DNA from: Candidatus Omnitrophota bacterium
Lineage (GTDB): Bacteria; Omnitrophota; Gorgyraeia; Zapsychrales; Fredricksoniimonadaceae
Reading direction: 5' to 3'
Length of the DNA: 64,000 bases
Assembly (NCBI GenBank): GCA_903908245.1
Contig: CAIVRE010000008.1
Coordinates: 1,432-65,431 of the forward strand
This document shows, piece after piece, positions 1 through 64,000 of the stretch. Position 1 is the stretch's first letter, and the number at the start of each line of letters is the position of its first letter. The notes below the pieces were generated by a model. That model searched no databases, had not been told where the DNA came from, and saw only the letters and a program-made list of their open reading frames with translations. Position numbers and translations under genes: made by a program.

Positions 1-3000
1 CCGCCACGCCACAGAAACAACATCACCTGAAAGAACAGCCCGGATCTCCCGCTCTAAAAGAACATTAGACTCATGGGAAAATTGCAGGAAAGCGCCGAAT
101 TCGTGCGTCAGTGTCAATGCAAAAGCAAGGGGATCAGAAAGAAGGGGCTCATCGAAGAAGACGCCCCGGTCGGGAATAAAAGAACCGTCCAGGACCTCCG
201 AAGGCCCGGCCCGTACCTGGTCCGCGCGCTTCAAATAATCCAGGAAAACGTCAAGCGAAGCATCGCCGAACAATACGCGCAGCGCCTCAACAGCTTCCTG
301 CGCCAGCGGATCATTCAGGAGCGGGCGCATGTCCACTATCCGAAGGCCCTGCCACACCCTCCTCAAACGCGCCTGCTCGGCCTCAGCCTCGGCCATGCCC
401 CGGCCAGGCTTCAAACGCGCCGGATCCAAAGGCCTGCGTTGTTTCTCCGGGAAAAGATGGCGGATCGGTTCCGCATTCCCCGGCGTCCCCGGCCGGACGA
501 CCTGCTCCAGGAACGCGTCCACATCAAAATAATAAACCCGGCTCAGCGCGCGGGGCGATGCCAGCTTATTGAACTGCACGGAGAAGCGGCGGATCCTTTC
601 CCTGGAATCGATCAGGATGACCCGCTTGCCATCCTCGATCTGCTGCAAGACCAGGCTGCGCTGATTCTTGCTGTCACTGACAAAATGAATGCGGAAGAAC
701 TTGCGCAACGGGACATCAGCCGCATGAAAATGTTCTTTCTGATAAGACAGGATCTCCGTGATCGCCCTAAGGATATTATTCTTGAACAGCCACAACTCAT
801 CCACGCTCAACGTCTTTCCCAGCTCGGAATGATAAAAAGCCCTCATGACATAATATTCGATATCCCGCATCGCGATCAGGTCGCGCCATCCATAACGCGG
901 GAAACTCAGCGCCAGCATGGTCACAATGAACCCGAAATATAACGGGGCCAGCGTCAGGACATAAGCCGAGGGATTAAGCACGAAATCCCTGTACTTCAAA
1001 CGATGCCACACCAGGACACAGAAACGGGCGATCCCCCCCAGGCACAGCAAAAATATGGATATCATGATCCCCAGCGCGGGATTCCCTGATGCCACCCCGC
1101 CGATCAAGGCCGGGATCCCCAGGAACTTCACAAAACCCAGAGTCCCTTCTATCCCCAGAACGATCTTGCGCACGCGCGTCATGACCGCGTCACGGTCGCC
1201 ATTCAAGGCCGAACTGTATTTCGCGATAAAACCCAGTATCCCGCGATGCTTCGGCTCAGGCAAAGCGGCCTTCTTTGCAATGGCCCTGCGCGCTTTCATT
1301 GAACGGGCCTGGGACCGGATCGCGGTCCTTTCCGTCGGCTTCGATTCATGGATAGCGACCTGGCTTACAAACCAGTCGATCTCCTGACGGGAATACCCTT
1401 CGACAGATCCCGATAACAGGGTCCGGACAGCGGATCCATCAAGCCCTGCCGACCAGCACCAGGTCCCGTCCTTCAACCGCCCGGCAACCGCCACATCTTC
1501 CAGAGACCGGACATCGCCCCCGACCGATGCCGTCTCCCGGGCGATACACAAGGCCATCTGCGCGATCTTCAGGAATTCTTTTGCAAAAGCCGGATACACT
1601 CTTGCCGCAAGGCGCATTCCGCGCGCAGTGATCAAATGCGCAATGGACGCCTTCCTGACAAAAGTACGCGGCCGGTAGATCTGGACAAAATATTCCTTCA
1701 CATAACCGGGAGGGGAAACATCCAGGGGGCGTTCCAACACGGGTTCAAGCCCGGGGAATTTATCAAAATCATACGCCAACTGCCCCGAGACAAAAAGCAT
1801 GACCACCCGGCTTTGCGGCGACATTTCCGCATTGATCTTTTCCTGAAGCCGCGTACGGAAAACCGCCGCCTCTCCCTGGTCAGAGGAATACGCATAAAAG
1901 AAATAGAAGATGTCAGTGCCTGTCCAGTCAAGCTGGAACGCGTCACCCTCATGCAAAACAATATCGGCCTCACCCACGATCTTTTCCTGGCGGGCTCTTT
2001 CCAGCGCCAGCCGGGATATCCGCGCAAGGGCCGGATCAAGTTCCGCCGCCACAGCCGTCATCCCGAAATATCCGCACGCCAGAAGCGCACCGCGCATATC
2101 CGCCCCTGATCCAAACTCAAAGAACCGTTTACCGGCCAATGCCCCGGCCTCCCCCAGCGCGGCGAATACTCCCCATAAACTCTCTATGGGTGTCGGAGAA
2201 TAGATCGTCCCGTTATCCAGCGTATCCCCGTCGTAACTCTTTGCATGCTTTTCATACACATCCTGCAAAAGCGCTTCCACGCGCGCACGCTTATCCTGCG
2301 GCTGCTCTCCTTCTGCCGGAACGCCTCTTTGATAAGCCGTATTAAAATATATTTTAATGAAATCCCGCAGGCTTTCCGGCGCGGTATCCATAACGGTGAA
2401 ATGATCCCGCATACTCTCCGACGGAGCAAGGCGATAAACAGCCCGGAGGGACGCATCGGGGATCCACAGCAGCGGCTCACGGCCGCCGGAAACTGTCTGC
2501 ACAAAAGCGGCATCTTCCTCCCGCGGCGCTAACGGCTGGAAATGGAACCTGGTGACCGCCAGCGACAACAGCAACGGATTGATGACCGTATTATGGATAC
2601 GCATGACTTCCGGAAAACGCGACAGGAACTGTGCGAACAAATGTCCCGCCAGGCCGCGGCCGCGCAGGTCTTCACGGACCCAGATCCCGCGGATGCCAAG
2701 CATATGCCCGTCTTCCTCGGCGCCATCCTCGTGCTGCTGGGCATACATAAAAGCCGCTTTTTTCCCGTCGGCGTCATGAACGTCCAGCGAATGATACGAA
2801 TCACCGATATCGATCGTCCTCATGCTGAAAGAGCCGGGAAGATCCCTCTTCGTCTCAGGCCCGGCCCTGTCGCCCAGCGTAAGCGGCGCCTCGGGATTAT
2901 CCGAATTGTGCATAAAATGCATCAGAACATCGCCAACCACCGCGCCCAGGAAACCACACACCGGCATCGCCAAAAACCACGGCGAGAAAAAGAACGCTCC

Positions 3001-6000: not shown

Positions 6001-9000
6001 GCGGGCACGGTATTCATCCCGCACACGGACCCAGGACGCCTTGAAATCCTCCCAGATCGCGCGAACACACCCGGCAGACGCCGCACCCGGCGTGCCGTCA
6101 TCAACAAAATAATACCTGAGTTCCCGTGAAGGATTTTCCGACATCTGGACCAGGGCCTGCAGGAACTTCGCGCGGAGGGCATCTTCCCCGTTAGGATTCT
6201 CCCGGCTATACGGCATGGACCGCGCCATCTCGTTGAACATGGGGATGATCCACGCTTCGCGGATCACACGCCCGACAGGCGCGAGGCCCCGGTTCACGGA
6301 CGACGCTTCGCTGAACTTCACCTTCTCTTTCCCGGAACGCGGCTCAAGAGGAGAATGTTCCACCGGGCCGGCACGAGGCTCCTCGGCTTCACGCTTCAAC
6401 TTCGCCGTTCGAACAACGGCCCTGTTCCGGCTTAAGGCACGAATAACCAATACCGCGAGAATACCCAGCGTCACAATAATAGAAAGCTTGATCACTAATG
6501 GCGAAACCCCGATCGCGGACAATATCACCGGCGCCGCAAGCCAGGCATGGCATGGCATCCCCTTCTCCGAACGCCCGTCACCGGTGAAAACCAGCCCAAC
6601 GAACTGCTTGAATTCCGGCGAATCCAAACCAGCCTGTGCCGTGATCGATGCCGCGTCCAACTTCAGGTCTTCCGCCATGCCGCGCAAAATACCATAGATC
6701 TTCCGGGGATCCCCGCTGGAAGCGATCTGTTCAAGAGCGTCCTGCCAGACACGGCCCGGAATATGTTCAAGACCAAAATTGCCATCATATTCAACCAGCG
6801 CATTACCCTGTATGGTATACAACACCAGGCGCCACAGCTCCCCGGCCATCCTGCGGGTCGCGTTGTAAGCGTCAGTGGTATCAAAAAACGTTGTACGGCT
6901 TTCCGCGGACAGCCAGCCTTCTGCCTGAACCTTCCGTCGGAACGCATAAAAATTCGCCATGGTCCTGCGCTGCTGGACAGGGCTGGCGATAACGATGACC
7001 CGCACCGCAGAACGGGCCTGACGCCTTGCTTCAAGCCAGGGCAGGATATTCTGGAAATTCTCAAGCGTATTGGTGGACGCCGTCTCAAGCATGATCCGGC
7101 CCAGGGCCGGGGCACCGGGATGCTCATGGCGCAGGACAGCCTCAATAAGGCCCGCTTCACTCACTAGCGGCGCGCGGGCATTAAAGAATGCCATCTTCTC
7201 ATCGAGTTTCATGGCCTCGGACATCATGACATCGACAATGAGCCGGTATTCCGGGTGATCCATGGACGCGATCTCAACACCCTCGCGCAATCGTACCGTC
7301 ACCCCGCGCCTTAACGCCTCTCCCAGCGTTTTCCAGGTCAGCCGCCCGCGGCCGCTGGTGATAACAAGCTCCCTCACGTCCCCTTTTTCAAGAAGGCCAT
7401 ACGCCAGCGCCCATGTTTCCGGGACACACGACGCGCACAACACGGCCGCATCATACACGCCTTCCCTGCGTGACAACGCCCGGCCTCCATGAACGGTCAG
7501 GAAATCCACCAATGGCGCCAGCGGGATACGGACCGTCAACCGGGTCCCAGAGGGGATCCCCTCGCGCTCACCCTTGCGGAAACTGACCAGCTCCATGGAC
7601 CCGCCCAATCCCCGCGCGTATTCCCCGATGATCAACAACCCGCGCCCCCCCGTCCCCTTGGGCGATACCAGAGGGAACCTGGACAGATACCGCAGAGCCG
7701 CATCCATGTCCATCACGCCGCCCTCGGCAAAGAAACGGTCCCATTCCTGCAGGGCAGGATTTGGGCCATTCACTTCCCAGACTGTCCGCGTAGAATCCTC
7801 GTCGGCCAGCCAGGCCCTCGCGCCCTTCTCGATCGCGGACGGGTCGATCCCCTCACCCAGGTCACGGACCGACAGGCACAACGCGCCGTCGTCAATGACC
7901 GCGCAAAAAGCAGGCGGAGCGTCTTTGGGAGAAAAAACGACCGCGTTATTGAGCATCTCGAAAACGATCATCCCGATCTGATGCGTATCCATATCCGGCA
8001 GACTGGACGGCAGGTCGATCAACACCTCAAGCGAAGCCCCCGTCGGCGAAGCAGGATCGCTCACCTGCGCCCGGACCTCCTGTTCCACCGCGGAGACCAG
8101 CCCCGGGGCTGGAACAGCCTGCGGACGGGACATCACGGACAGTCCTGCAAAAACAGGGTCCAGGACATCATCGAGGAACAGATTGCGCGTCTTGCGCCGG
8201 CGCCCCTCGGCAAGAATATCCTTTTCAATACGGTCCAGTATCATGGAAAGCTCTTCCGGCGACTCAACGCGACGGATCAGCTCGTCCATGCGGCCATGCT
8301 GCAACAATCCATACGCCAGCAGGGCCCCGCGGCGATGGTCCGGGTCGCCATAGACCTTTTCCAGAAAATCGCGCGCCACCGTCACATATTGCTCAAAGAC
8401 CCTGAATTCCCCGCCGCAACGGTCAACAGCAGCCTCAAGCGCCGTCGCGATAAAGAACTTGAAGATGTAATATCTCTCTTTGGGAGACCACAACTCGGAC
8501 TCCATCTGCTGGAGAAAATCCAGGAACGCATCACGGTCCCCCGGCCTGAACTGCCGATACTGCGACTGTGCCATCGCCAGCGGAGAGAACGGCTTGGCTT
8601 CGGCAAAACGCGCCGCCAGCACCCCCAGAAGCTCCAGGATCTCGCGGCGCTCCCTGACATTGTTCTCGTCGGTCATTTCCGTCACGACACCCCGCGCGCG
8701 AAAAACCCGGTCGACCCCGTGCCACCCCTCCGCGCGGGACAACCGCCGGCGAACGCCCCAGGGGATACGCCGCAGGGCTTCCCCCGGCGTTGTCACCAGC
8801 GCCCTGAAATACGCCGGGGACAAAACCTCCCGACGAGTGCCATTGCGGATGGTCTGTCCGCTCAGCGGCGCCGGAAGCTCAACGAACACATCGTCCATAC
8901 CCTCCAACTGACACGCAGCAAAATATTCATGCCACCCCTGCACGATCTCGCGGCGTTCATTGCGCCCGAAATCATACCGCCCGCCGGCCAGGGCCATCAA

Positions 9001-12000
9001 AAGCCGCCGCAAAAGATTGAGCGACACTTCGCTGGAGATCCCCAGGGACGCCACCTCGCGCAACACACGCTCCCCCTCCGCCGGATGCGCCGCGATAAAA
9101 GCACGCAGGTCCCAGGCCGCGAGCAGGGCATTGTCCTTAAGCAGATCAAGCCCGTACCGCGCCGCCGTCTTTCCAAGCTCTCCGTCACCGCCCAGCGCCA
9201 GCACGGACAAAAGCACCGGCCGCTTCACCTGTCCTTCCACACGGGCCAGCATATCGAGCACGACCGTGTCAGTGACCGGGGACCGGATGGCCGCCTCGGG
9301 ATGTTCCGCGCGGTTGCGCGCGGTCACCGGATAAGGATAACGCGCCAGGACATCGCCCCCCATGTCAACGCCGATGGTCAGGACATCCTTGCCGCGGTTC
9401 ATCGCCAGATACTCTTTTGCCAGGGGTGCGCCGCCATAGGTCAGGTCCATCAGGACCAGGTCGATCCCGGCCGCCGCAAGGCCCTGGACGATCAGGCCCT
9501 CACTGATCCCGACGGATATCTGCCTGCCGCCCACATCCACCCGTGCGACCAGGCCCTCTTCTTTCAAGGGATAGAACAACCGTGTCCCCGACAAAGGCTG
9601 CAAGGGCGTAAAGATCCCGTTGCCTTCCGTCCCCAATGCCGCGGGCGGCGTCGGACCGCCGACTGGATTCTCCTCGCCGCGCTTGAGGTTGGTGGTAAAG
9701 ACCGTAAAATGCGGCACCGGGATCCCGTGTTCCCTGCACAACAGCGCGAGCATCCCGACAAAGAACGTCGCGCCCAAAGCGTCACCGCCCCCGCCAAGGG
9801 TCACAATATGGACTTCCTTGGGTGATCCCCGCAGGACATTAAGGAACAGATCATTGTTCAACACAGATGGTTTCGCGGCAAAAGAACGGGACAGGACCCG
9901 CGGCAGCCATCCCCAGGAACGACGGGCAGAAAAAGGCAGCAACGCCAGGACCTTGTCGGCCAGGGCAGGAAGGTCCTCGCACTCCGGCTCGCCGGCCTCC
10001 ATTGGCGCGACCTGATAATACCGGAAAGAACTATCCGGATACGCCGTGCCCTGCGTCCGCAGCACATCATGATCATCCACCAGCACGTGATACCCCAAAA
10101 GCCGCACATCCTTGATGCCCGGATATATCATGAAACGTTCGATCCAGTCCTCGGCCCGTTCCGGCGCATAAAGAGCATATGCCCCGGACAGGTCTTCAAA
10201 GAAATCCAGGTAATCGGCAGGATCCAGGTCATAACACGAATAATTTTCACGCGTGATGAAGAGTTCGAAATATCCGGCCAGTTGCGGGCAATGGTCGATG
10301 AACAATTCTACCGCCGGTCGCGCGGCATAACTCCACAACACCAAGCGGACCCCGGCATCTTCCAGCCGCTTCAATACTTTTGCCATACCCGGGCGGGCCG
10401 AATATGTATTCGTCACTGGATCATAAAGGGCAAGCGTATTGTCCATATCCATGGCCACCGTATGACGGCGGGAGGATATTTCACGCTGCAAACTGACGAA
10501 AGAATCCTTATAAATAGTTCCTGGGATAAAACGCGCATGAACCGGAACGCTTCTGGGATCAATGAATGCAGGGCAAGGCTGCGGACGAATGGCCTTCGCC
10601 GCTCTCCAGACCCCGCGCTTCCATCCCAGCCAGGCCAGGACCCCAAGCGCAACAGCAGCTCCCGCCAGCATCCAGGCCCCTCCCGCTGACGGCGCCATCA
10701 GGATCAGCGCCGGCCAGGCCGCGCACTGAAGCGACACGGACGGGTGCCGCCTGTCTTCTTCCGGACGGGATAAAAGCCTTTCAACAGACAGCAGCACAAG
10801 ATCCAACGCCTCATTCAAACCGGTTTTATGCCGTTCCGCTTCCATGTCATCAGGCGTCGTCAGAACGACCTCAAGTATAGCCTCCGCCCTGGACAGGGCG
10901 GCCGCAAGCGTGGCGTCTTTGGGATCAAGAATGACCGCCGCGTACGCCTTGAACCGCTCCACGACCGGCGCCGGCATGCTGAGCTTGACCCTGATCCCCT
11001 GGCGGTTAAGGTAGGCCCAGACCGGCCAGAACCGCGGCAGGGCCGCCATGTCCCCGCAAATGGAAGCGTCTTCTCCGGCGGCAGAGCCCGAAGCTGTCGT
11101 CTGGACAATAGCCCGCAAGACCCGCGGCGTCACATTCATAAAATACATTTCATGGTCCTTGGGATCAGCCCGGCGCACATTCGGATGCAGCGCCGCGGTA
11201 AGGTCGTTGGTCCCGAAACTGATGAACGAAGCCATCGTCAGGGCTTCCTGCGGCTCGGCGACCAGCTCCGCGGTCTCCACCATCGTCCCGACGGGGAATA
11301 AAACCTCTTCGTCCGGGACTCCTTCCATCCGGCGGGCCTCTGCCAGAAGGCCCAGGGCTTCTTTCATATCCGCGGCGGACTTGACCATCGGGAACATCAC
11401 CCGGAAATTGGTAAGCCCCCGGCGATAAAGCCGGATCCAGGCCCTGAACTGCTGCAGCGCGACCGCCCGGCCCAGCGGATGCTCCAGATACCACTTGTAA
11501 CCGACATACTTGATCCAGCTGAATGCCCGCGGCAATTTGTCTTCCTGCAGGTCGATCACGCGGAACGTGACCGACCGCCCTTTCGCCGCTTCCGCGATCC
11601 CGGTAAAAATGGCAAGCAACCGGTCGATCGACGGGATGGTCAGGCTCTCGTAAATGTTCTCCACCCGTACCAGTCCGATAAAATTCGCCCGCCAGCGCGT
11701 GACCGCATCCCCGATGAGCCGGCTATTGTCCGCATTGGCCCCTGCCACGATCCGTGGATCCTCCTCACCCTCAACAACGGCCGCCCTCTCTGAAACCGCG
11801 CCGGTCCCCGCCGCACGACGGGTCGAACGCCCCGGGTTGACCAGGATCCCGTCCGCCGTCAGAAGGACGCGCAGATCCTCATGAAGAGGGGTTCCCGCAT
11901 CCGCGAACGAAGCATCGATAACAATAACCGGAAGATTATAACTTTTGGCCATAAGCGCGTAATGAGACTGCGGCGAACCGGCCATATTGAGCACCGCCAG

Positions 12001-54000: not shown

Positions 54001-57000
54001 GATCGAAAGAGAAGCACTCGCCGCATACTGCAGCCCAATCCTGGCAGCCGCTGTCTTGACACTACTGGCAGCACCGGAGAAAGGAACCGACAGCGCAGCA
54101 AGGGAGACAAACGCGCTTTCTTGCAAATCTAACCCGCGGCCTCTGGCCGCATAAGAAATAGCATTACCACCGATATTAAATGCCCCGATAGCTCCGACAC
54201 CACGAACCACGCCCACAGCCCATGGGTTGGCGGACATCGCTATTAACGACGTTCCTACGCCAGCTAAACGTGTTCCCTGCAAAGCATTCCCCGTGCCTGC
54301 CATAAATCTGGTTGCGAGCGAAAGATTACTGCTCCCCAGCCATCCACCCGCACGCGCCATCAATGCGCTCGAAACACCCGCCTGCAAAATATTACTAACA
54401 GAAAAATCGCCCGTTTTATTATATTTATAGATTTCTGCCGCTGTCGCAACCCCCGCGCCAAGCGCAGCGTACACCAAAACCCTTTTAGTGGCATACCTTG
54501 TCGCAATTGTCTCCGTAGCCTGAACAGCAACTCTAACCGCCACCCTAGCTGCAGTAGTCACCGATGCATGCAATGCCCCTTTAGCTGATTCAGCAGCAAG
54601 AACAGAAGTTCCCGCAGAAAAAAGAGCCGTACCCAATTCAACCGCCGTAATAACTCCATCTACCACATAAATAGCCCCCATCACTTTTGCACCGTTATTC
54701 ATCGCGTGCAACTGATCCGAGAATGCCCTGGCACTGGAATAATCATTGCGAACCAATTCATCCGCGATCCCTTTCATTTCATTACCATCAGCAAAATAAT
54801 GATTCATACGTCCGTCTTTATTCACATACCAGACCGCAATATCATTATCCCGAACTCCCATCCAAGCCTCACCCTTACTCTTCCATGCATTGATCTCTTC
54901 AGGCAATGCAGCCGTACCCGCCTTATTTGCGCCAAACACTGAATCCATCCAGTTCGACCCGGAACCACCGGACTTGCTGGATATTTTATCCATATCATTC
55001 AACCAGACCGTCTTCCCCTCACCCCACCTGTTCACAACATCCGTAGACCCTGAACCAAACATTGGATAAATATAGCGAGCCGCAAGTGAATTTCGTCCAC
55101 CGACCCAATACCCCTGATGATTTTCTATCTCGGAGGATCTTGTGATCGCAAAATCCCCTTCCGGCGTCTTAACGATCGTTGAATCTTGTAATATCCTGTC
55201 TGACTGCGCCGGATTAAGCAGCAGCTTCATGATCTTGATCGCCTCGGGAGAATATTGAGTGTCTAAAACTTTCTTGCCATCTTTCACAACCCATTGTTCT
55301 GAAACGATATCCGGCATATAAACAAATGCCTGCATCCCTATTCCACCTAACCCGCCTTGATTACGCGGAGTGATCAGCCCTTGGACCAAGCTGACCATCA
55401 AAACCTCGGAATCCCTTTCTTTCGAATACTCCGCATACGAACCAGAACCATATTTATTCCTGATCTCTGTCGGCTTGGACAGGTCATTTCCCAACGCTGA
55501 ACGCACCGCAAACTCCGTCATCTGCGAATTACCCATTCGAGGATCACGCAACAAATCGTTATAAAGAAGAAGGTTTTTATTAGAACCAACATCCATCGGC
55601 GGCATATTGGAAGGCAACGCCGGCAAAGAAGCAATCCTGTCGCCCCAAATAACAGAAGAATACGCATTATCAAAAGCCGTTGTCTGGGCGCCCACTGTAA
55701 CAGTCGTCAATTGCTGATTATCCAATTCAGACAAGAACCGGCCACCATTACGCATATCTCCGGTCTCAACATCCTGCAATAACAATCTGGATCCCGTACC
55801 ATATCCAGTTTCTACCACAACAGTACCGCGATCTTGTAAATGCCCCGCGATATTAGAGGTCACCTTTGTTGGTTTCCCATCAGTCCCAAGGACAGCAAGC
55901 TCAACATCTTTCATGGCTTGCCCATAAGGCGTTGTTGATGTCGCCGCATCACTTGTTTTCTTGGAAGACAGCAGATCTTTAAGCATCGCAGTGAACCGTG
56001 ATCCAGGCAGGTTCGCGAACAACGTTGCAGAAAAAGGAACCTCTACCAATCCTTCATTAACCACCAATCGCTCACCGACCACTTTTCCCGTCTTGCTATC
56101 GATTATCGCAACCCAACCCGGATCGCGAGAACCATACGATCGAGACCCTATCTCAAAACCTTGTCCTGAAGCCCCTAATTCTATTTTATAACTGCCATCG
56201 GCCTGAATATCCTTGGCAAGGCCTGAACGGAACTCCCCGCTAACCCGATACTGACCGGCAACACCAACAAAAGTTCCCCAGCCTTCTACATTCCTTGTTA
56301 ATTGTTTAAGACCATGTTCTGATAAAGTGCCATAAGCCGCAGGCAATCCCTGGGACAAATTAACATTAGCAAGCGTATCCGTATGCTGACTCGGCTGAAG
56401 AAGCACGGTCATAACTTTATAAATATTGGTATCCTTTACTAATGTACCTTCACCAAAAAAATCAACAAGTCCATCTTGTCTATACGTCCATCCGGCGAAA
56501 GCATCCTTAGCTCCTTCTTTCATATAAAGTTTTGAATCCTCGGAATACCACATCCCCGAACCAACTTTATCCCCTTTCCTAACGCCATCATATTTAAGGG
56601 CAAAGAAAGTGGATTGATCAAGGCCGACCGTGCTTAATGCCTCTTTCTCCTGCCTGCTCAATGAAAAATAATCAGTCCACGCTTTCTCTGCGATAGACAG
56701 CCTTTCACCAGACACCCCAGCGGTCTTAAGCTTGGCAATAAAATCCGCTTTGGTCTGCCGCGGCGCTTTATATTCGTAAGGAGCAGAACCAAAATCCGAT
56801 TTAACCGGAACACCCATATTCTGGTCTTTATTTTCCTGGCGCGCTTCATCGGCTAACAAAACAACCGATCCCTTCTTGTCCCCGGCGAACCGCAATCCAT
56901 CCGTCATGATCCACTTGCCATCACTATCAAGTCCACCTAAGTGAAATCCAAGACGGGTGACATAACTGCCTTTATCATCCAAGAGCCCTTTTTCTGATGC

Positions 57001-60000
57001 CGCAGCGTTGGGGATCGCACTCGCAAATCGAAGGTCCGCCTTATTCCCCACAGAATAAACAACCTTATCCGAACCCGCCTCGCCTGTGCCTCTGGCCGTA
57101 TAAAGAGAACGCTGCTCAAAATCCGCCTGAAGGCGGCGCTGTTTTCCTGCTTGATCAGCATCCGCGATCGCAGACTCTTTAAGTGCAAACTCGGGCCCCT
57201 TGCTCTTCTCTTGTGTCGAGCCCTGACCGGTCTTTTTATGCGGTGTCACATCTGAATAAGACCCGTTAGTCTTCCCATCGGATACCGCCATGATCAAACT
57301 CTCTCCTAAGAAAGCAACATCTTCTGACTGCCCCAATGGACCAGACGCAAGCTTACGCCAAGTCGGAGAGAACATATTAAATGCCAACTCGTTCTTAACT
57401 TCCCCTGTAACGACCCCATTCTCCATCTTGGCACCCTTGGCATATTCCTTAACCCCGCCACGGGCAAGAACATTCGTCCTGGAATCATCAGCAAAAACAA
57501 CAATGCCATCCTTATATTCCAACATGGCCTTACGAATATCCCCGTCATTGATCGCAACACCTTGCGCCATCAGCCCGTTGGTTGAAACATATGATTGCAA
57601 TGGGCCGCTCAAATTATTTATATTAGTAAAAAGCTCCGCGATCTGCTGTTTCTTGGTTTCCGGGTTCCAATTGGCTTCCTTCAAATAAAGCACCATATTC
57701 TGCTTACTACCGGACACAGCATCGGGCAGGGTAACAAACTGCTTAAGAATCCCGCCGCCATTCCCTGATATCGATCTTTCCATGGCAACAGTGCTTCCAT
57801 CCATCACATATTTACCGTCCTGTACCGTAAACCCGCCCTTATATATCCCGTCCTGACGTGCCCCAGCATAATCATAAAGCAATAAAGGAGACGACCAAAT
57901 AACCCCTCTCCCCGATACTGATTTACTTCCTGTGGCAATTCCATCCTGCTGTTGGGGAATAATATTGGTAATAGCCTGCGTTGCCGCCGTTCCTTCGTTA
58001 TATTTATAATGAGACCCTGTCGTCTGAAAATGGATCGGAGTGACATCTCCCGTCAACACGATCTTCCCGGCCAACGGGTTCTGACTAACGGCAAAATTAT
58101 TTAAATTATCACCGGTAAACATCAACGCGGATATCTGCTTGGCTGTCGATGAAAAAACCTTGGCATCAATCCCGGAACCATCTTCTTTTAACGCTTTTAA
58201 AGCCACCTGCTCCTGCTGCATGGTCTTAATATCCGTGTCCGAAACTCCCATCGACTTTAACGCTTCTGCAAATTTTTCCGGAGTCATCTCCCGAATAGCC
58301 TGGACAGCGATACCTCCAACACCCAAGGCCTGCCCCATCCCCGCTGTCAATCGTTGTCCTGGTTCATTGGCACTTAACACAACATGTCCAGCCTCCACTC
58401 CACTCTGACCGACCGTCGCCTCTTCTTTGACCGGAACAAATGTTCCTGCATGCGCCCCAAATATCTTCTGCCTGGATTCTTCTTCTGCGGCAGCAGCCAC
58501 AAGTTGCTGCCCTTGGGAAACCCATGCAGTGACTGCACCCATATCCGCACCAGCTTTTGTCAACTCCGTCGCTTTTATCTTTAGATCAAAAGCCTTATAA
58601 GACTTGTCTTCCGCACCCTTGCGAACTTTCTCGTCAGTTGACTCCCTATCGGCAACAACCTCTGCGTCAAGCGCCGTAGACTGCCTCATCAAGTCCTGCG
58701 CAGTTTCCGCTATGGCTGTCTTTAATATTTTCTTTTCATCATCAGAAAGAACAGCGCCGGGCTTCATGGACTTCTGGACAACTTCTGCCATCGATCCCAG
58801 ATTCTTCGCCTGCAACGACTGGACCATCATCTGTGCCGCGCTGATCGACCTCACCGGAGCGTTTGTCTTTTCCGTCCCTGAATAAACCGCAACCGCCTGA
58901 GAAAGCGGCAACGTCTTTTCACCATTACCTTCAGCTTTATACTCCCTAAGATCTGTGACTTCCTTCCCGTCAGCATCCACCGTCTTAACCGGGATCTTGC
59001 CGGATACAGAAGCGCCGTTCATCATCGGCATCCATCCATCGCCCGCCGGATCATAAAGATATTGATTGGAGCCTGTCTGATATGTTAATTTCCCAAGGCC
59101 CAATTGAGCATTATTTAAGAAAACCAGTTTTCCGCCTTTAAACAACCCATCCCTAAAATTATCCTGATTATAGCCACGCTGCATCCTGCCGGAACTGCCA
59201 TCACCGATAGTAGCCTGGCCATCAAAATAATCCACAATAGCTCTGTCTCCCGCCGTACCCGCGATAACATCTACCCTGCCCGTTTCATTAGATAGCGCCT
59301 TGCCATCGATAATATAACGCGCTCCATGATATTTATCCGTCCCGTTCACAACACTCATGCCACCCTGATTCATTCCCAAACTAAATGGCTGCGCGATATA
59401 CCCGATCGCATCCTTAACACTGGTGTCCTCAGTCCTGAGCGTTTCCGTACCATCCAAAACCGGTATATTTTCTCTGACGATCCCCCGGCCTAAACCGATC
59501 TCCGTCGCCTTCGCCCCATCAACCTTTACCTCTGCCGAACCTCCTGTATAATTCAATAATCTCCCAACAACCTGTTCTTTATCATCGAGGATCGCCCCTA
59601 TAAGATTCTTTGAATTGATGCTCAAGACAGTATCTGTACTCTTTACCCCTGACGCCGGTTCATCAGCAGAATTATCCTTCTTGGGATCAGCATCCCCTTT
59701 TGCCAACCCGAACGGCGTTGCCATAAACCACCCGGTCGTCTTGCCCTTGCCAACAAGAGGATTCGACCCTGCGAACTTGATCTGGCCATCACTTGTTACA
59801 GAAGCCTCAGCATCACTTAAGCGGCCAACAGACGAAGGATCTTTGCCCTTCTCTGTCCCATTCTCCCACCTAGACTGAGTCATTGCCGTATTTGCAAACG
59901 TTGCGTTAGGCTGAAGTCTTACATTCAAATACGGAAAATCTGCCAATGTGACCACGCCATCTTGTAAAGCGGACTGATATTTTTCCTTTACCCCAAAATT

Positions 60001-63000
60001 AAATGTTCCGGTAATATCAGTCTGCGCGGCATCTTGATACTTAATAACCTGCCCATTGGCATCCAATTTAGCTGTACGCTCACCATCGAAAAAGGAATGC
60101 GTAACACCTTCCTGTGTTAACGTTCCAACTTTTCCTTTCTCAACACCAAACATGACCTTTCCATCCTTCATAAAGATCGTAAGATTATCGGCGATCCCCT
60201 GAGCGGTAGTACTATATGCACTGTGATACCGAAGGATACTATTGCTTGTCTCAACATTCAGCGCACCGCCCGTCAGCATGCTGACCGATAATTGTTTATT
60301 ATAATCTGTAAGGGGAAGACTTTCCAAAGAAGCCCCTTTAAGACTCTCTTCAGAAAGAGTATTTGTCGTTAATTTCCCATTAGCCGAATACAGCAGAGCC
60401 CTGTTTGTAGCAGTATCCAGCGTGGCCAAATTCCCGGTCAATATCCCATGAAATTCACTAATATTGCCGCTCTTATCCGTCGTCCAGGGATTCTTCCCTG
60501 AAACCAACGACGCTGAATAAGCCACTCCATCTTTGGAAGAATCCCAGCCATACACCTCCGCAACAGTCTGATTACCCGATTCCTTTGCTTCCGGACCATC
60601 AACTCCTTTGACAACTTTAGCCTGACCACGTTCCCAAACCATGGATATAACTCCACCCTGGCCATTGTCCTTATTATCCGCGCCGACCTGGGTAAAAGAA
60701 GCCGAACGATTCGGGTTAACCAGCCACTTGCTAATATCATCCGCCCGTATACCAACAAGACTTCCCGCCTGGAATGTCTTCCTATAAGCCCCAGCCCCCA
60801 TCAACGCATGAGCAGCATTAATATTCACCCCGCGAAAATCACCATGCAATACCGGATCTGGAACGCCCATATTATAAAAGTCAACCGTACCATGGAACTC
60901 ATCACGTGACTGAACCTGTCCCTGCTCCTGAACACTCTTGAACGTCATGTTCTGTGCGAAAACCTTTTGGGTTGCAGCCTCACCGGCTTTGGAACTAGCC
61001 TTTCCCGTCGGCGTCAAAACACTGAAATTCAACGCGATCGGATCGCTCACCTTGCCACTGCTTTCCTGCGACGGAGTGATCACATAATCATTGCCACGGC
61101 TCAATCCTTGAGAAGACGCCGTCAACTCCGTCATCAATGCCGCCAACTCAGTATCCCCTGTGGCCTGAGTAACCAGCGCTCCGGCCATGCCACTAAAACC
61201 AACACGAGTCAGCTCCTTTGCCAATGCAAGCGATTCCTGGGCCTCCGGTGTTGATAATTGTTTCGCAAGGTACGGCGCGCTAATAGAAAGTTCTTTGGGA
61301 GTTCCCCGAGGATCATTCATCTGACGATTGACATAAGTCGTCGCAATCGTCTGCAAGGGATCGCCGCTAAAATTAAAATCCCCGGCTGAAAGATCCAGCA
61401 GGGTCTTTTTCTGGGCATCTGCCTGATAAACAAAACCAAACCCGCCCTTGCTTTCCTGGCCGACAAAAGACCCGTAGAATGATGTCGATGCCGCCGAGGA
61501 ATAATCGCTCTTCGCCAGGGCCAACGCCGCAGGATCAGCATTCAATGTGTCCACTTTCACTTGCAATTCATTAAGCTGATTATTAAGCCTTGCAATCTGC
61601 ACTGGATCGGCACTAGCCCCCTTGGCATTTTCTTTGGCTATGGCAAGCTTAAGACTATCCCCCTGACCCTTCAGTTGTTCCACGGCATTTTGTAAATTAT
61701 TTGAAACACTGCTCGAAACACCCCGCCACGCGCCCGGCATCCCCTGCACACTCGTAAATCCTTCAGTCACGAGCTGCTGGGCTTGAGCATTATTTGCATC
61801 CTGCATATTCAACACCGGAACAACCTTGGCGTTCGAAACCAATCCAAAAAAAGATGTTCCATCAGGCTCAAGCTTGGACGCCGACTCTTTTGTATAAGTA
61901 CCATACGAAATCCCATTCACAGAATTCCCGCTCACCGGAACAGTAATACTCACATTGCCAATATTCATGCTCTGCGCATAAACCTGCCCGCCAAGGCCAC
62001 TGAGCCCGTTGGTTCCGGCATCACCTAATGTCGCCGCCATCAACTGTTGATACGCCACGCTCTTTGCTGACCCGTCATTGAACATCGGCTGAAGGCCCAT
62101 AAAATACTGATCCTGCCCCGCCGGAAGCTTACCGCAGCAATAATTCATCGCACTAAAGTCCGCCACCAGGCGCGTTTGAGCCTGCACATCCGAATCCGTG
62201 AATGACATCGTCATCTTATAGAAATTGGGCGTATAAAGCTCTGTTTCAAACTGTTGCCCTGTTCCAACCTTTGCGCCGGAGAATGCCTGAAAAGCCCCGG
62301 TATTCTGATTATAAAGCTGTTGATTAACGATCGATAGAGACCCGGTCGTATTAGCTGCGAACTTCTGGCCAAAAGTATAGGTATTGGCTGTCTTCACTAA
62401 ATTATTCATGGATTCGGAGCCAACCTGGGCATACTGGTTGCTCATATAGCTCACCCCCGCCAGGGTATGACGATTCACTGAATCCATGCGCCACTGCGTA
62501 TCCATTTGTTCATCCGTACGGCGCTGGTCCTCAGGCAAAGCGGCGTTCTCTTTTTCGGACTTCTTCTGCTGACGCTCAAACTCGATCGCGCTATCAATAG
62601 AGAAGCCAGCTGCTCCGGCAAGATGCTCACCATACCCCATCATGGCTGTTGGACTATCAAACGAAAAACCGCCCTTTGTATTAATAAAGTTCGTACCATA
62701 AACGATCCCCATCCCCATATTAGCCTGGGAATACATTGCCGCGCCAAACATATCGCCTTGCAAAATACCTGTTGCTGAACTAACGAGCGCAAGCTTCCCC
62801 TGGAACGTATCAATATTCTGTTTGAACTCCCAGCCATTGGTAGCCGACATTCTTACCAATTTTGCCATATTCTTTTCATCATTAGCCCAAGCTTGCACGA
62901 TCGGCGCCGCGGCAATAACAGCCTGTCCGGCCGCCGTTTTACTTTCTGTTTCCCACGCCGCTGCATACGCTGCCTTAACAACATCAGGCCGGATCCCGGC

Positions 63001-64000
63001 AATGCTTTGATAAAGCGCTGTTTTCTCCTCCATAGTCCCTGCCGTAGCCAATGCCGCATTAAGCTTGGCAAGATCCCCTGGCGAAAGATTTGCAATTTTA
63101 GCCTGAAGAACCGCATCTTGCGTCTTTGCCGTCTGATCCATATCCCTTTGAACAGTTTGAGCATTTGCCGTAAGTTCCTCCACACCCCCCTGTCCAGCAT
63201 CTTTCAATGTGGAATTCAGACCTTCTCTTTCTTTTGATCTCTCCCACTCCGCAGCTCCACCCAACACAATTCCGGATACCATATTCATTGAAAGCCCGGC
63301 AACCATATTGAACTGGGCAGCGCTATATGTATAATTCCTTGACCCGTCATCTTTACCGATCGCCGACTCCCGCAATTTATCAAAAACAAGCCCTGTCCCG
63401 GCCACAAGAAGACCAGAAATCACACGTGCACCCATGTTGTCCCAAAGCTGCCCACTGGCCATTGATTTCTGTCCGGAATCCATCATCGTATAACCTACGC
63501 CATACGAAACAACCGCTGAAACACCCTGGCCGATCCCCTTGGAAAGAGCGCTGTCCGGATCGCCGCCGAAGGCATAGCGGGCAACACCGCCTGCCGCTTT
63601 ACCCACAGAATCAGCTACAACAGAAGAAAGATTTTTCGATAATGCTGCACCAAAACTCGCCCAGCTCACTTTGCCATAAGACGTTTCCGCCTTTGCCATG
63701 GCCTGATCCGCGTCCATATGCCCACCGTCAATGGCATCTTGCTTCAAAATCTTCTGCTGTTCCGCCTTAAGACCTTCTTGATTAGAAGGATCACTCACCC
63801 AAGCTTGTCCGGCAACAGCCTGAGACGCACCGTCATATGCCTTATATACATCACTGTTCATGATCGCTGCCGCTTTGGCATTGGTCATTCCACCGTCACT
63901 GGCATTGGCCTCCGCGATCTTTTGATTGATCAGATCTGCATTAGGCAGATCCGCACCCCCGGCCTGTGTCGGAAGAGCTTTGCCATCAGCAACAGTATTC
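1..64000 (-). CDS. Single giant ORF spanning the whole window (>=21,333 codons), partial at both ends; multi-domain membrane-anchored mega-protein of unknown overall function
   Basis: Minus-strand codons correspond to + triplets 1-3, 4-6, etc. No tta/cta/tca in that + phase in any scanned line (1-420, 36421-37680, 44041-44400, 50161-50760, plus 53401, 55021, 57001, 60001, 63841-64000). About ten independent motif anchors are in this one phase: GNAT ~2640, MTase ~2090, DHH ~4490, GT2 ~5600/6100, DUF218 ~7040, HATPase ~7650, FCP1-like DxDxT ~10435, PEP-utiliser ~11200/11950, GH13 ~14793, GDE_C ~16400, DVHG ~23205, Walker A ~41440 and ~49120. The ORF track lists no minus ORF ending on a coordinate divisible by 3. 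All long + ORFs share the antisense-aligned phase. Strong GC3 bias on the minus frame in the GC-rich part. Confidence 0.8.
880..1180 (-). other. C-proximal cluster of about three transmembrane helices
   Basis: Reverse complement of 900-1185 reads MTRVRKIVLGIEGTLGFVKFLGIPALIGGVASGNPALGIMISIFLLCLGGIARFCVLVWHRLKYRDFVLNPSAYVLTLAPLYFGFIVTMLALSFPRYGW. Confidence 0.4.
1500..2250 (-). other. Class I SAM-dependent methyltransferase-like fold
   Basis: Reverse complement of 2041-2127 reads RFFEFGSGADMRGALLACGYFGMTAVAAE (motif I-like h-h-E-h-G-x-G-x-x), followed about 20 aa later by an acidic ELDP (motif II-like). Confidence 0.35.
2520..2950 (-). other. GNAT-type N-acetyltransferase-like domain
   Basis: Reverse complement of 2581-2670 reads ...IWVREDLRGRGLAGHLFAQFLSRFPEVM (GNAT motif A, R-x-x-G-x-G/A). 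Preceded by a hydrophobic TM pair (2930-3050). Confidence 0.45.
4300..4850 (-). other. DHH-family phosphoesterase-like domain (N-terminal DHH motifs only)
   Basis: VVVFADHMDIDSFV (reverse complement of 4748-4790; DHH motifs I/II) and ATWLTIDHHPARPG (4476-4499; DHH motif III). No GGGH DHHA1 motif seen downstream. Confidence 0.35.
5450..6150 (-). other. Family-2 glycosyltransferase (GT2, DPM1/GtrB-like) domain
   Basis: LRYYFVDDGTPGAASAGCVR (reverse complement of 6061-6120), SKIFNLIIHWGLPPLRGIED and TQRGFKLFKRAVIGAILPHV (reverse complement of 5581-5700): DDG ... ED ... QRGFK motifs. Preceded by a hydrophobic TM stretch (6440-6545). Confidence 0.6.
6850..7330 (-). other. DUF218 (YdcF/SanA/ElyC-type) domain
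   Basis: ELVITSGRGRLTW ... LETASTNTLENFQNILPWLEARR (reverse complement of 7021-7090; the S-x-T-x-EN signature of DUF218). Confidence 0.45.
7560..8000 (-). other. GHKL-type ATPase (HATPase_c; histidine-kinase / anti-sigma Ser-kinase-like)
   Basis: IVFEMLNNAVVFSPKDA (N-box; 7921-7970) ... DLGEGIDP (G1) ... RFPLVSPKGTGGRGLLIIGE (G2; reverse complement of 7621-7680). Confidence 0.5.
10000..10460 (-). other. FCP1/NIF-type HAD phosphatase domain
   Basis: Reverse complement of 10381-10500 reads FVSLQREISSRRHTVAMDMDNTLALYDPVTNTYSARPGMA (DxDxT/L signature), followed by ...VRLVLWSYA... and ...HVLVDDHD... Confidence 0.5.
10900..12000 (-). other. PEP-utilising enzyme module: swivelling phospho-histidine domain plus TIM-barrel PEP-binding domain
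   Basis: LAVLNMAGSPQSHYALMAKS (reverse complement of 11941-12000; PEP-utiliser signature 1-like, G-x-x-x-S-H-x-A-h-h-A-K) and MASFISFGTNDLTAAL (11185-11226; signature 2, S-h-G-T-N-D-L). Confidence 0.55.
14300..15350 (-). other. GH13 (alpha-amylase family) catalytic-domain-like module immediately downstream of GDE_C
   Basis: DCFIANHVADDSP (14972-15016; region I, DxxxNH) and GFGGLRLDAPKG (14767-14800; region II GFRxDAAK-like with the catalytic Asp). Confidence 0.5.
15400..16500 (-). other. Glycogen-debranching-enzyme C-terminal (amylo-alpha-1,6-glucosidase, GDE_C / six-hairpin) domain
   Basis: YVNWGRDTMISLPAL (16390-16470), RYNSVDATFWLF (16283-16320), GKAVEINALWYDGL (15900-15970), QGTIWPWL, CPAQAWSLAAAIE. 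These are characteristic GDE_C signatures. Confidence 0.6.
22400..23230 (-). other. Calcineurin-like metallophosphoesterase domain
   Basis: Full motif set in order: LADVHG (23194-23205), QLGDVTRQ (GDxxDR), LMGNHE (about 22960-22976), LFVHGG (about 22640-22665). Preceded by a TM helix (23345-23420) and a Pro-rich hinge (23440-23640). Confidence 0.65.
23650..24520 (-). other. Clan GH-A-like (beta/alpha)8 glycoside hydrolase domain (GH5/GH17/GH128-type NE acid/base motif)
   Basis: Reverse complement of 24181-24240 reads TVAGHPALRYIVLGNEEENK (h-h-h-G-N-E motif). Downstream LVLGEAGAD and ELTNESW. Preceded by a signal-anchor-like TM (24705-24750) and a P/T/A hinge (24530-24690). Confidence 0.45.
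25100..25460 (-). other. Lys/Ala/Glu-rich charged segment (ER/K-type single alpha-helix-like spacer)
   Basis: Reverse complement of 25201-25320 reads EAAARDAADPVKAAAKKAAEDAQKAEEAAKKVKEDAKKVE. The track's minus ORF 25164..25412 is the out-of-phase Arg/Lys-rich image of the same region. Confidence 0.45.
25480..30620 (-). other. Polytopic membrane module (about 1,700 aa; ten or more hydrophobic helix-length segments separated by soluble loops)
   Basis: Examples: ARWFVGGMIALLLTIGFFLPFAGHRF (reverse complement of 30541-30610); LIGTVSALFIWLAFPAAGLIVKGVGVANFVAMPWGMIMGAFASLMGLIFGALI; LMWFYAAQALALITAVVFPWSLCLPTLIIAVPVWLQIGLQVIPALIFL; LIVLIAVGFHPAKAVLWIVTMLMPLAGVGAPFI; GIEALVQLGAFIFLSLWGGV. Confidence 0.4.
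30650..36340 (-). other. Large soluble region (about 1,900 aa) of unrecognised function between the membrane anchor and the polytopic membrane module
   Basis: Open minus frame; hand translation is protein-like but no confident family motif was recognised. Confidence 0.25.
36340..37940 (-). other. Membrane-anchor segment with three predicted TM helices (about 37875-37935, 37215-37270, 36345-36405) flanking an internal repeat region
   Basis: Hydrophobic runs: LPVIVFGVVLALAVLGARYF (reverse complement of 37861-37940), TGVVLVFAAILGYAAGIG (reverse complement of 37201-37290), VIVIIVAVVLFAGAGIA (reverse complement of 36340-36420). Confidence 0.4.
37300..37660 (-). repeat. In-frame coding repeats: a 34-nt core duplicated with a 228-nt period (37351-37384 and 37579-37612, 33/34 identical), plus 21-nt periodic units at 37440-37575
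   Basis: Direct repeat cttact[c/t]gtattcgctactgtactaccattgccc at 37351-37384 and 37579-37612. Each copy sits in the reverse complement of a run encoding GNGSTVANTSKV. Short repeats gaactgcattcac / cactgcatt encode VNAVRSNAVKVVRSVVNAVRKGVVNGAK (heptad-like VNAVR units). The frame stays open throughout. Confidence 0.6.
38040..38200 (-). other. Pro/Thr/Gly-rich hinge
   Basis: Reverse complement of 38041-38160 reads ...NTSLPPTPTPGPTPTPGPAPAPVVPAMPVVPQGPQLPGAG... Confidence 0.5.
39950..41500 (-). other. Second P-loop SF2/SecA-like ATPase module (paralogous to module 1)
   Basis: Reverse complement of 41401-41490 reads QAGVWIAKIGTGAGKSSVAVVAMAADHRKN, a Walker A close to the one in module 1. Reverse complement of about 39961-40080 reads ...SGDVLVVLADTKSTHTEIDQGLGRSRGVKVSGRLTETPI, resembling SF2 helicase motifs V and VI (QxxGRxxR). 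Confidence 0.4.
41650..41830 (-). other. Pro/Val-rich hinge
   Basis: Reverse complement of 41641-41820 reads ...VPVRTPRNVPAVPLPSPVRVMPPAVPVVPVVPAITPMVAPPMRIVSEQPSAPEVKK. Confidence 0.45.
44000..44290 (-). other. Pro/Thr/Ser/Ala/Val-rich low-complexity hinge
   Basis: Reverse complement of 43981-44280 reads ...GPASTAPAPVALPTTSTSSITVTTTPTPVVNQPMASVIPAVTSVVAQAPAVPVITPPVAPQTLAALNDE. Confidence 0.5.
47950..49250 (-). other. SecA-like DEAD motor ATPase module 1 (P-loop NTPase)
   Basis: Reverse complement of 49021-49200 reads ...GFFQTAFGKSGRMMWDQFVGGGKSTIAVAMAGVLAATGKKVALVATSDDLYKAW. This matches the SecA N-domain pattern RHFDVQLxGG...GEGKT...LNALTGKGVHVVTVNDYLA. Upstream KRFDIREEQ matches SecA RHFDVQ. 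Downstream MDEFHRV is Walker-B-like (about 49.0-48.8 kb in the uncheck hand read). About 330 aa further on, VLGMTGTAKD (+ 48100-48135) matches the SecA GMTGTA motif. Confidence 0.55.
49300..53100 (-). other. Long charged alpha-helical/coiled-coil spacer (E/K/A/L/Q/R-rich, heptad-like)
   Basis: Verified stretch: reverse complement of 51721-51840 gives LTKFSKVGMFQKRLEQKKAELARFLETAIKGSKERSQNVR. Similar composition throughout, e.g. ...LEAAQVRQQGVEALEGGKINKAVKLLEKAVKLDALAAKENRNDL... Confidence 0.4.
53100..64000 (-). other. N-terminal Gly/Ser/Thr/Asn/Ala/Tyr-rich beta-type region (about 3,600 aa) with alternating aromatic/hydrophobic patterns; adhesin-, beta-helix- or beta-barrel-like; no catalytic motif recognised
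   Basis: Hand translation of the minus frame, e.g. ...NTVADGKALPTQAGGADLPNADLINQKIAEANASDGGMTNAKAAAIMNSDVYKAYDGAS... Repeated G-x-G, N-x-x-G and Y/F-alternating stretches. Lower GC (~45-50%). Confidence 0.35.

Follow-up and report, generated by a model that had tools for sequence, protein, structure and literature searches.

A 64-kb window of a Candidatus Omnitrophota genome as the very probable interior of one giant gene with an SF2/SecA-like motor, membrane helices and alpha-glucan enzymes

The stretch considered here, positions 1,432 to 65,431 of contig CAIVRE010000008.1 from the Candidatus Omnitrophota assembly GCA_903908245.1 (64,000 nucleotides, hereafter the window, meaning the whole of that stretch), is very probably an internal 64 kb of one real protein-coding giant gene belonging to the Omnitrophota "archaeovorin" or multi-enzyme-metabolic class. 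Reverse-complement translation of the minus-strand frame whose codons lie on plus-strand triplets 1–3 to 63997–63999 meets 0 stops in 21,333 codons, whereas the other five frames contain 259, 621, 992, 1,332 and 751 stops. About 500 stops would be expected from the frame's own position-specific base frequencies (ln P(0) about -506). The uninterrupted minus-strand frame that a first-pass annotation had proposed from the letters of the sequence is thereby borne out as a single open reading frame (ORF) at 1–63999, open at both window edges. Residue numbers below refer to the visible part of the giant protein, in which amino acid (aa) i corresponds to window positions 64000-3i to 64002-3i, and all features of the gene lie on the minus strand. 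The window is free of N runs, the G+C content by codon position follows the coding-type order GC1>GC3>GC2 along the whole frame, the amino-acid make-up is ordinary (A 11.7%, L 8.9%, C 0.3%), and Pfam and NCBIfam domain models match within the frame. The stop-free frame, its coding composition, the in-frame domains and the collinear giant ORFs of other Omnitrophota described below also support the further proposal of a single giant gene that exceeds 21,000 codons and crosses both edges. There is practically no chance that the frame is an artefact, produced by an unusual genetic code or by non-coding sequence, in which ordinary genes would seem fused with their stops reassigned or compositionally absent. 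Nothing beyond the missing stops speaks for such an artefact, while only one frame lacks every type of stop codon, against 259–1,332 stops in each of the others, the frame's own composition predicts some 500 of them, and relatives in complete standard-code genomes (Velamenicoccus archaeovorus) are likewise stop-free.

The frame is also non-repetitive. Internal protein repeats were not found (blastp of 500-aa chunks, E<1e-5; phmmer of 300-aa tiles, E<0.1), and tandem and dispersed DNA repeats in the window are negligible, with none significant, so that collapsed repeats are not an issue. This result bears on the usual explanations of bacterial ORFs longer than 30 kb, namely a conventional giant surface adhesin, an RTX/Ig-repeat protein or a megasynthase of the nonribosomal peptide synthetase or polyketide synthase (NRPS/PKS) type. 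Given zero internal repeats and the absence of any adhesin, dockerin, TSP3, cadherin, Ig, RTX, condensation, KS or AT domain in Pfam and NCBIfam scans of the whole frame, such a protein deserves next to no credence here. The ten plus-strand ORFs that reach 300 aa all have start coordinates of 1 modulo 3, as had been stated for the long ones; they lie in plus-strand frame 1, measure 372–778 aa (e.g. 7,489–9,825, 17,698–19,965 and 24,418–26,313) and are codon-aligned with the sense frame. Plus-strand frame 1 has only 259 stops in 21,333 codons, and such antisense shadow ORFs are expected because TTA, CTA and TCA codons are rare in the GC-rich part; they are no evidence of genes.

Omnitrophota, the lineage that includes Velamenicoccus archaeovorus, are ultra-small bacteria living on or preying on other cells in a predatory or episymbiotic manner. 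Genes of the size seen here had been rated as extremely rare, a judgement that proves exaggerated, since giant ORFs of 20–440 kb are documented and common in Omnitrophota. ORFs longer than 20 kb occur in 77 of 116 Velamenicoccia genomes, and the V. archaeovorus protein of 39,678 aa, with 42 transmembrane (TM) helices, has been detected through peptides that are 3-fold up in attached cells (PMC10066038). A study of 18 samples recovered 3,650 proteins with 10,000 aa or more, up to a length of 147,155 aa (10.64898/2026.06.07.730766). Archaeovorins have been described as combining divergent SecA_DEAD domains, domain-poor N-terminal regions, glycoside hydrolases, and GNAT and PPDK domains (10.1101/2023.11.21.568195). 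In the window, at least 21,333 codons of the gene are visible, with both ends beyond the edges. For archaeovorins, the criteria of West-Roberts et al. 2023 set "large" at more than 10,000 aa and "giant" at 30,000 aa or more per single ORF, and list divergent SecA_DEAD or SecA preprotein-binding domains without scaffold or wing, an enzyme set made up of glycosyl hydrolases and transferases, PPDK-type domains, GNAT, NUDIX, methyltransferases and HEAT/TPR, a C39 or S8 peptidase near the N-terminus, a type II secretion system (T2SS)-like locus upstream, and pilZ and sugar-transport genes downstream. The window gene exceeds the "large" size, shares three collinear blocks with 21 kb of the V. archaeovorus type gene, carries numerous predicted TM helices (about 20 by a crude hydropathy method) and has a long domain-free N-terminal region (aa 1–7,400). 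Part of the archaeovorin enzyme set was detected, comprising GDE_C, alpha-amylase and phosphoenolpyruvate (PEP)-utilising domains together with weak GNAT and weak TPR matches, and GT5/GT1, NUDIX, HEAT and Pfam methyltransferases were looked for in the frame and not found. About ten distinct Pfam families are present in one copy each, so that many families occur and none dominates by copy number, as in Class 1 of Nielsen & Lui 2026. Dockerin, EF-hand and thrombospondin type-3 repeats have no Pfam match in the frame, which separates the gene from the dockerin-type Omnitrophota giants. Thus, the window gene is a new, highly divergent member of an already described class and not a new category.

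Its kinship with the type protein is collinear over an extended part. Positions 13675–19968 (aa 14,678–16,775) align with the giant gene of V. archaeovorus LiM in three blocks whose order and spacing are conserved, comprising aa 14,678–15,064 (26% identity), 15,213–15,408 (27%) and 15,805–16,775 (52%), about 2,100 aa in all. In a genome scan with an alignment of the glycogen-debranching (GDE) region, covering one genome per species, the best loci for this block were those of Omnitrophica UBA6210 (62%), the V. archaeovorus LiM chromosome (NZ_CP019384.1:107,996-129,237; 60%) and two metagenome-assembled genomes (MAGs; 59%). All fetched GDE loci are stop-free over the whole 21 kb and have a GC content of 0.55–0.57. 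At the protein level, the GDE region matches many ordinary debranching/amylase/starch-synthase enzymes of about 1,540 aa at 35–37% identity, and closer fragments (43–57%) fill entire short contigs of Omnitrophica and similar MAGs, with the GDE module alone aligning. The PEP-utilising block recurs in the giant gene of UBA6210 (34% over 1,000 aa), where it lies upstream of the GDE module (locus L002), whereas it lies downstream in the window (10,900–16,600). This difference in order indicates that modules are conserved while their order and linkers are fluid, being reshuffled within giant ORFs. The nearest relatives of two independent regions are all Omnitrophota or Velamenicoccus-like, and the window is without a marker gene. 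Overall, every identifiable relative is an Omnitrophota giant ORF or a fragment of one, and most of the window sequence has no detectable relative.

Two further observations concern the sequences retrieved in these scans. Two MAGs labelled "uncultured Planctomycetia" (L004 and L016) contain giant-gene segments that are 72–88% identical at the protein level to V. archaeovorus LiM; because of this identity, their taxonomic labels are probably wrong or the contigs mis-binned. In addition, a 143-nt segment of the window (2809–2951) is 100% identical to the end of the Joint Genome Institute metagenome contig Ga0118677_10021673 (L001 8,072-8,214), the sole match of the metagenome scan, and the same sequence therefore exists in an independent metagenome. 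The rest of that 8.2-kb contig is an unrelated operon of ankyrin, metallophosphatase, VWA-TPR and BatB-D-like genes, and the join cuts a BatE-like TPR gene out of frame. The contig end is probably chimeric or a branch of the assembly graph. A mis-join in the window at 2,951 was considered and rejected, since the out-of-frame BatE-like cut makes the metagenome contig the likelier chimera. No literature was found on the sample identifier Ga0118677.

The N-terminal visible part (aa 1–6,770; 43690–63999) has a GC3 of 0.47, is rich in K, N, Q, S and T, and is poor in R. No Pfam domain above threshold occurs in aa 1–7,400, and the hydropathy scan finds no strong hydrophobic helix before about aa 8,690. 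A word-indexed search of 5.8 billion proteins returned no match for aa 1–2000 and none for aa 7,300–8,300, results that are weak evidence for a lack of homologues, as the same database failed to return the V. archaeovorus giant protein, whose GDE block aligns at 52% in genome loci, and seems to be missing full-length giants. The window ends had no match in the scan of the genome collection. The low-GC part was also considered as coming from a phage or plasmid, and no match to phage or plasmid sequences was found. One partial protein, P0047, is collinear with this region. It is annotated as "GNAT family N-acetyltransferase, partial" (MBF0486244.1) in a Candidatus Omnitrophica MAG (GCA_015233145.1). 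The encoding gene opens 88 nt from the beginning of a 17-kb contig and is cut off by the contig's other end, so that P0047 comprises its first 5,689 aa. In P0047, aa 538–828 correspond to aa 3,464–3,776 of the window gene (52672–53610; blastp 25% identity, E=9e-12; phmmer sub-block iE 4e-7), its aa 3,541–3,618 to aa 6,148–6,226 (45322–45558; blastp E=1.8e-4; phmmer iE 0.0036), and its aa 5,224–5,689 to aa 7,470–7,916, within the motor described below (32% over 479 aa). The middle block is weak alone and stands collinear with the other two. Since P0047 is collinear across both, the link between the domain-poor region and the motor is found in a second organism too. Extrapolation of this collinearity puts the probable start of the window gene about 2,900 codons beyond position 64000; the gene ends beyond position 1.

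After the domain-poor region lies an SF2/SecA-like ATPase motor (aa 7,470–7,990; 40030–41592), in which a Walker A motif, GTGAGKS (41443–41463), is followed by an inserted helical domain of about 170 aa, the motif VILASGS (40540–40560) and a second RecA-like domain. When the motor was compared with PDB sequences by phmmer and by profile, no SecA and only weak SF2 N-domain matches came up. With aa 7,234–8,033 as the query, an exhaustive HMMER search among 1.84 billion representatives yielded nine matches, the best of which is P0047, and every named match is a giant-gene fragment from a Candidatus Omnitrophica/Omnitrophota MAG. Alignment of the family reveals conserved TGxGKSSV, DIDxK, YEGE…PLN and VVLASGSIT motifs. 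With an 8-sequence alignment as input, AlphaFold (AF2) gave a model that has a predicted local distance difference test score (pLDDT) of 69 and a predicted template-modelling score (pTM) of 0.54; a single-sequence model (pLDDT 39.5) was unusable. In the alignment-based model, an insertion of about 170 residues parts two RecA-like domains, and the 8 best Foldseek matches of the model are all SecA structures. One of the motor matches is a 7,820-aa "C39 peptidase domain-containing" Omnitrophota fragment (locus L083: GCA_050250375.1, JBFWOS010000003.1:721,133-764,593). At that locus, two T2SSF genes lie upstream of the C39-bearing ORF, and beyond a 10-N scaffold gap another ORF extends for at least 17,588 aa; the two partial proteins of the annotation are probably pieces of a single giant gene exceeding 25,000 aa.

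Strong hydrophobic segments begin after the motor. The helix calls come from a Kyte-Doolittle scan of 19-residue windows, a crude predictor, which yields about 20 hydrophobic 19-mers with a mean of at least 1.7 between aa 8,688 and 21,014, spread over the remaining 12,600 aa or so at roughly one per 1,000 aa. This density agrees with the catalogue value of about one TM helix per 1,000 aa for the multi-enzyme class (10.64898/2026.06.07.730766). The first strong cluster, directly after the motor, comprises helices at aa 8,688, 8,910 and 9,199 (to 9,217; 36349–37938) with means of 2.0–2.8 and 0–1 charges. A central helix-rich region holds about 12 between aa 11,126 and 14,436 (20692–30624), and a pair lies at aa 20,969–21,032 (904–1095), near the C-terminal window edge. 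Among the first helices is the sole local repeat of the gene (37,340–37,640; aa 8,786–8,887), a 55-nt unit present twice at 85% identity and encoding GNGSTVANTSKV, with a 21–24-nt tandem between the copies that encodes a VVRSxNAV-like motif.

The GC contrast between sections that had been noticed at first sight is real, with values of 0.56–0.63 at 1–44000 and 0.46–0.50 at 44000–64000. An abrupt step in synonymous codon usage lies at about aa 6,770 (window about 43.7 kb). Within a few hundred codons, GC3 passes from 0.47 on the 5' side to 0.69 on the 3' side, the frequencies of A/C/G/T at fourfold sites change from.16/.17/.31/.35 to.05/.33/.45/.17, and the CTG share of Leu codons rises from 0.12 to 0.44. 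The ratio of lysine to arginine (K/R) falls from about 2 to about 0.3 over the same boundary (window 43,000–45,000; aa about 6,350–7,000). Both sides avoid CTA and CGA and prefer GAT, AAT, TAT and CAT. In the P0047 gene (L082), GC3 rises smoothly from 0.38 to 0.59 in the 5' to 3' direction, and in two other Omnitrophota giants (L083 and L084) it is flat. A transcription-associated C-to-T deamination gradient was rejected as the cause, because A and T both rise, the shift from GC to AT is roughly symmetric and the change is abrupt; a universal property of low 5' GC3 in giant genes was rejected because L083 and L084 are flat. The plus-strand GC skew is negative throughout the window (-0.07 to -0.28), corresponding to a G-rich coding strand, and its strength roughly doubles in the low-GC 5' part of the gene.

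Two explanations of the step involve a junction. The first is an assembly chimera, in which different giant genes of two populations, one lower and one higher in GC, would have been fused in frame near 43.7 kb, so that the 21,333-codon frame would overstate one gene. The sharpness of the change in synonymous usage and in K/R at aa about 6,770, the flat GC3 of the relatives L083 and L084, and the chimeric-looking join of Ga0118677_10021673 to a 143-nt piece of the window gene, which illustrates that such joins occur around this gene, would fit a chimera. However, P0047 crosses the equivalent junction collinearly, with aa 3,464–3,776 and 6,148–6,226 on one side and aa 7,470–7,916 on the other, its GC3 rises too, the codon quirks are common to both sides, and the window holds no repeat or shared k-mer able to cause a mis-join. 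A chimera therefore appears distinctly improbable, and even its separate halves would still be stop-free ORFs exceeding 6,700 and 14,500 codons, respectively, leaving the giant-gene conclusion intact. Because of the collinearity of P0047 across the step, the lack of a mis-join repeat and the preserved frame, it is also less likely than in-frame module exchange as the cause of the step. The second explanation, which we hold only tentatively and at less than even confidence, is that the step marks an in-frame recombination junction at which a block of more than 20 kb from a lower-GC relative was grafted onto a conserved chassis. The grafted block could be the TM-free, orphan and presumably host-contacting part, and the chassis could consist of the SecA-like motor, the membrane helices and the enzyme domains. 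If this is true, giant genes would evolve by swapping specificity cassettes of tens of kilobases, in a manner resembling the exchange of tail fibres, Rhs proteins and contact-dependent inhibition (CDI) tips, which swap at a much smaller scale; a real boundary would be direct evidence of how giant genes are assembled. The codon-usage step is the only feature of the window that might teach something new.

The C-terminal third bears a series of enzyme domains of the cytoplasmic type. In order along the protein, the frame contains a calcineurin-like metallophosphoesterase (aa 13,593–13,714; 22858–23223; PF00149, 24.6 bits against a cut-off of 21.5, E=3.9e-5), the amylo-alpha-1,6-glucosidase domain GDE_C of the glycogen-debranching type (aa 15,815–16,221; 15337–16557; PF06202, E=1.9e-81; TIGR01561/TIGR01531) and an alpha-amylase family catalytic domain (aa 16,271–16,463; 14611–15189; PF00128, E=9.5e-9; cyclomaltodextrinase model, E=4e-10). 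These are followed by a PEP-utilising module (aa 17,297–17,688; 10936–12111; PF02896, E=1.4e-30; PF00391, E=3.4e-4; TIGR01417 PTS_I_fam, E=2.5e-25), which joins a phospho-histidine swivel domain to a PEP-binding barrel of the Enzyme-I or PPDK C-terminal type and with which no ATP-grasp domain was detected. Further downstream are DUF1152 (aa 18,172–18,279; 9163–9486; PF06626, 33.8 bits, cut-off 27, E=2.9e-8), a histidine-kinase/HSP90-like (GHKL) ATPase (aa 18,671–18,828; 7516–7989; PF02518, 28.1 bits, cut-off 26.4, E=2.9e-6) and DUF218 (aa 18,901–19,024; 6928–7299; PF02698, 30.5 bits in a 5,000-aa scan, cut-off 27.6). Two segments match weakly below the Pfam cut-off, one resembling a HAD-type phosphatase (aa 17,846–17,937; 10189–10464; PF00702, 22.2 bits, cut-off 26.4; TIGR01681, E=1.2e-3) and the other a GNAT acetyltransferase (aa 20,408–20,464; 2608–2778; PF00583, 18 bits, cut-off 20.7, E=3.5e-3). 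Motifs resembling those of class-I S-adenosylmethionine (SAM)-dependent methyltransferases (FFEFGSGADMRG … AAELD … HEGDAF) were read off the translation at aa 20,554–20,814 (1558–2340) as an unconfirmed lead. From aa about 20,624 on they have no Pfam match at E<0.1 and no match to PDB sequences, and no Pfam methyltransferase was detected in the frame.

By extension of published hypotheses for this protein class, a possible course of action can be outlined. The polypeptide would be synthesised as a single chain that crosses the cytoplasmic membrane again and again, and its built-in SecA-like motor, lying beside its own membrane helices, might assist in exporting or inserting parts of the same protein. 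The polar, arginine-poor N-terminal region may be displayed outside the cell, contacting a host or prey, while the membrane-tethered alpha-glucan and phosphotransfer enzymes could process sugars from the host or prey cell. Several points weigh against assigning the gene to the archaeovorin class and against such a course of action. The functional roles are read from domain names. We know of no giant protein of this class with a demonstrated mechanism of synthesis, export or action. Pfam SecA_DEAD does not match the motor, on which only DEAD scores, at 22–23 bits under its cut-off of 26, and the GT5/GT1 glycosyltransferases, HEAT and NUDIX domains typical of archaeovorins went undetected in the Pfam and NCBIfam scans of the frame. 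The transmembrane prediction is a crude hydropathy scan whose helix calls do not settle sidedness, and single predicted helices separating ATP- or PEP-dependent domains would make an implausible topology. Finally, there is the abrupt step in synonymous codons at aa about 6,770.

A related doubt is whether the chain acts as one protein. The gene might encode a polyprotein cut into separate enzymes and structural pieces, or be partly expressed from internal starts as an "operon in one ORF". Unrelated enzyme domains parted by long linkers and hydrophobic helices would suit this arrangement, as would the reordering of homologous modules in relatives (the PEP-utilising and GDE modules of UBA6210), which behave as independent units. 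In contrast, the Pfam scans found no peptidase domain in the window, no member of the class has a known cleavage site, and promoter- and terminator-like motifs are close to shuffle expectation, with nothing pointing to several transcription units. Searches for tRNAs and Rfam families had no match in the window, so no ribozyme or other RNA family accompanies the frame. Taken together, a polyprotein or internally started gene seems unlikely, though by no means far-fetched, and we prefer to regard the window as part of one gene whose product is a single large protein.

Giant ORFs are a signature and still unexplained feature of Omnitrophota, and the window gene displays a recurring core of such genes, in which a domain-poor N-terminal region is followed by an SF2/SecA-like motor, membrane helices, and alpha-glucan and phosphotransfer enzymes. 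The known picture of the class is unchanged, and the value of the gene is incremental in that it adds a very divergent sequence.

Comparison with known systems places the gene among the Omnitrophota giants. Repetitive giant adhesins, such as the 36,805-aa protein of Chlorobium chlorochromatii, consist of RTX, Ig or cadherin arrays, and tandem arrays of this kind are absent from the window gene; NRPS/PKS megasynthases are built from condensation, adenylation and thiolation or KS, AT and ACP modules, none of which occurs in the window frame. For the motor, the nearest known system is the SecA preprotein translocase motor (Bacillus subtilis SecA, PDB 1tf2/1tf5; Escherichia coli, 3bxz). P0047 alone is detectably homologous to the domain-poor N-terminal region, sharing three collinear blocks of which the last is the SF2/SecA-like motor, as well as a GC3 that climbs along the gene. 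It differs in its patchy identity of 25–32%, in the position of its motor (aa 5,224 against at least aa 7,470 in the window gene), and in that its GC3 changes gradually whereas that of the window gene changes abruptly. The Class 1 "multi-enzyme metabolic cluster" giants of Nielsen & Lui 2026 are likewise tiled by varied, unrepeated Pfam families on one polypeptide and share the GHKL ATPase, GNAT, HAD and sugar-metabolism content and about one TM helix per 1,000 aa; their starch synthase, phosphoglucomutase and ROK kinase were undetected in the window, and the likeness is one of architecture only. The V. archaeovorus LiM giant resembles the window gene in being a stop-free, non-repetitive giant ORF with a local GC of 0.56, in the GDE_C and alpha-amylase block (52% over 975 aa) with two upstream blocks at 26–27%, and in mixing TM helices with enzyme domains. 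Further probable points in common, going by published accounts of the class, are PEP-utilising/PPDK-type domains and a motor resembling SecA (10.1101/2023.11.21.568195; PMC10066038), whereas beyond the roughly 2,100 aligned aa no similarity was found within the 7,080 aa of its sequence that were compared. Stand-alone debranching/amylase/starch-synthase fusions of about 1,540 aa from Planctomycetota and relatives share the GDE_C and alpha-amylase pair at 35–37% over about 800 aa and are ordinary-sized and soluble; in the window gene the same pair is embedded in more than 21,000 aa and is closer, at 52–62%, to the giants of Omnitrophota.

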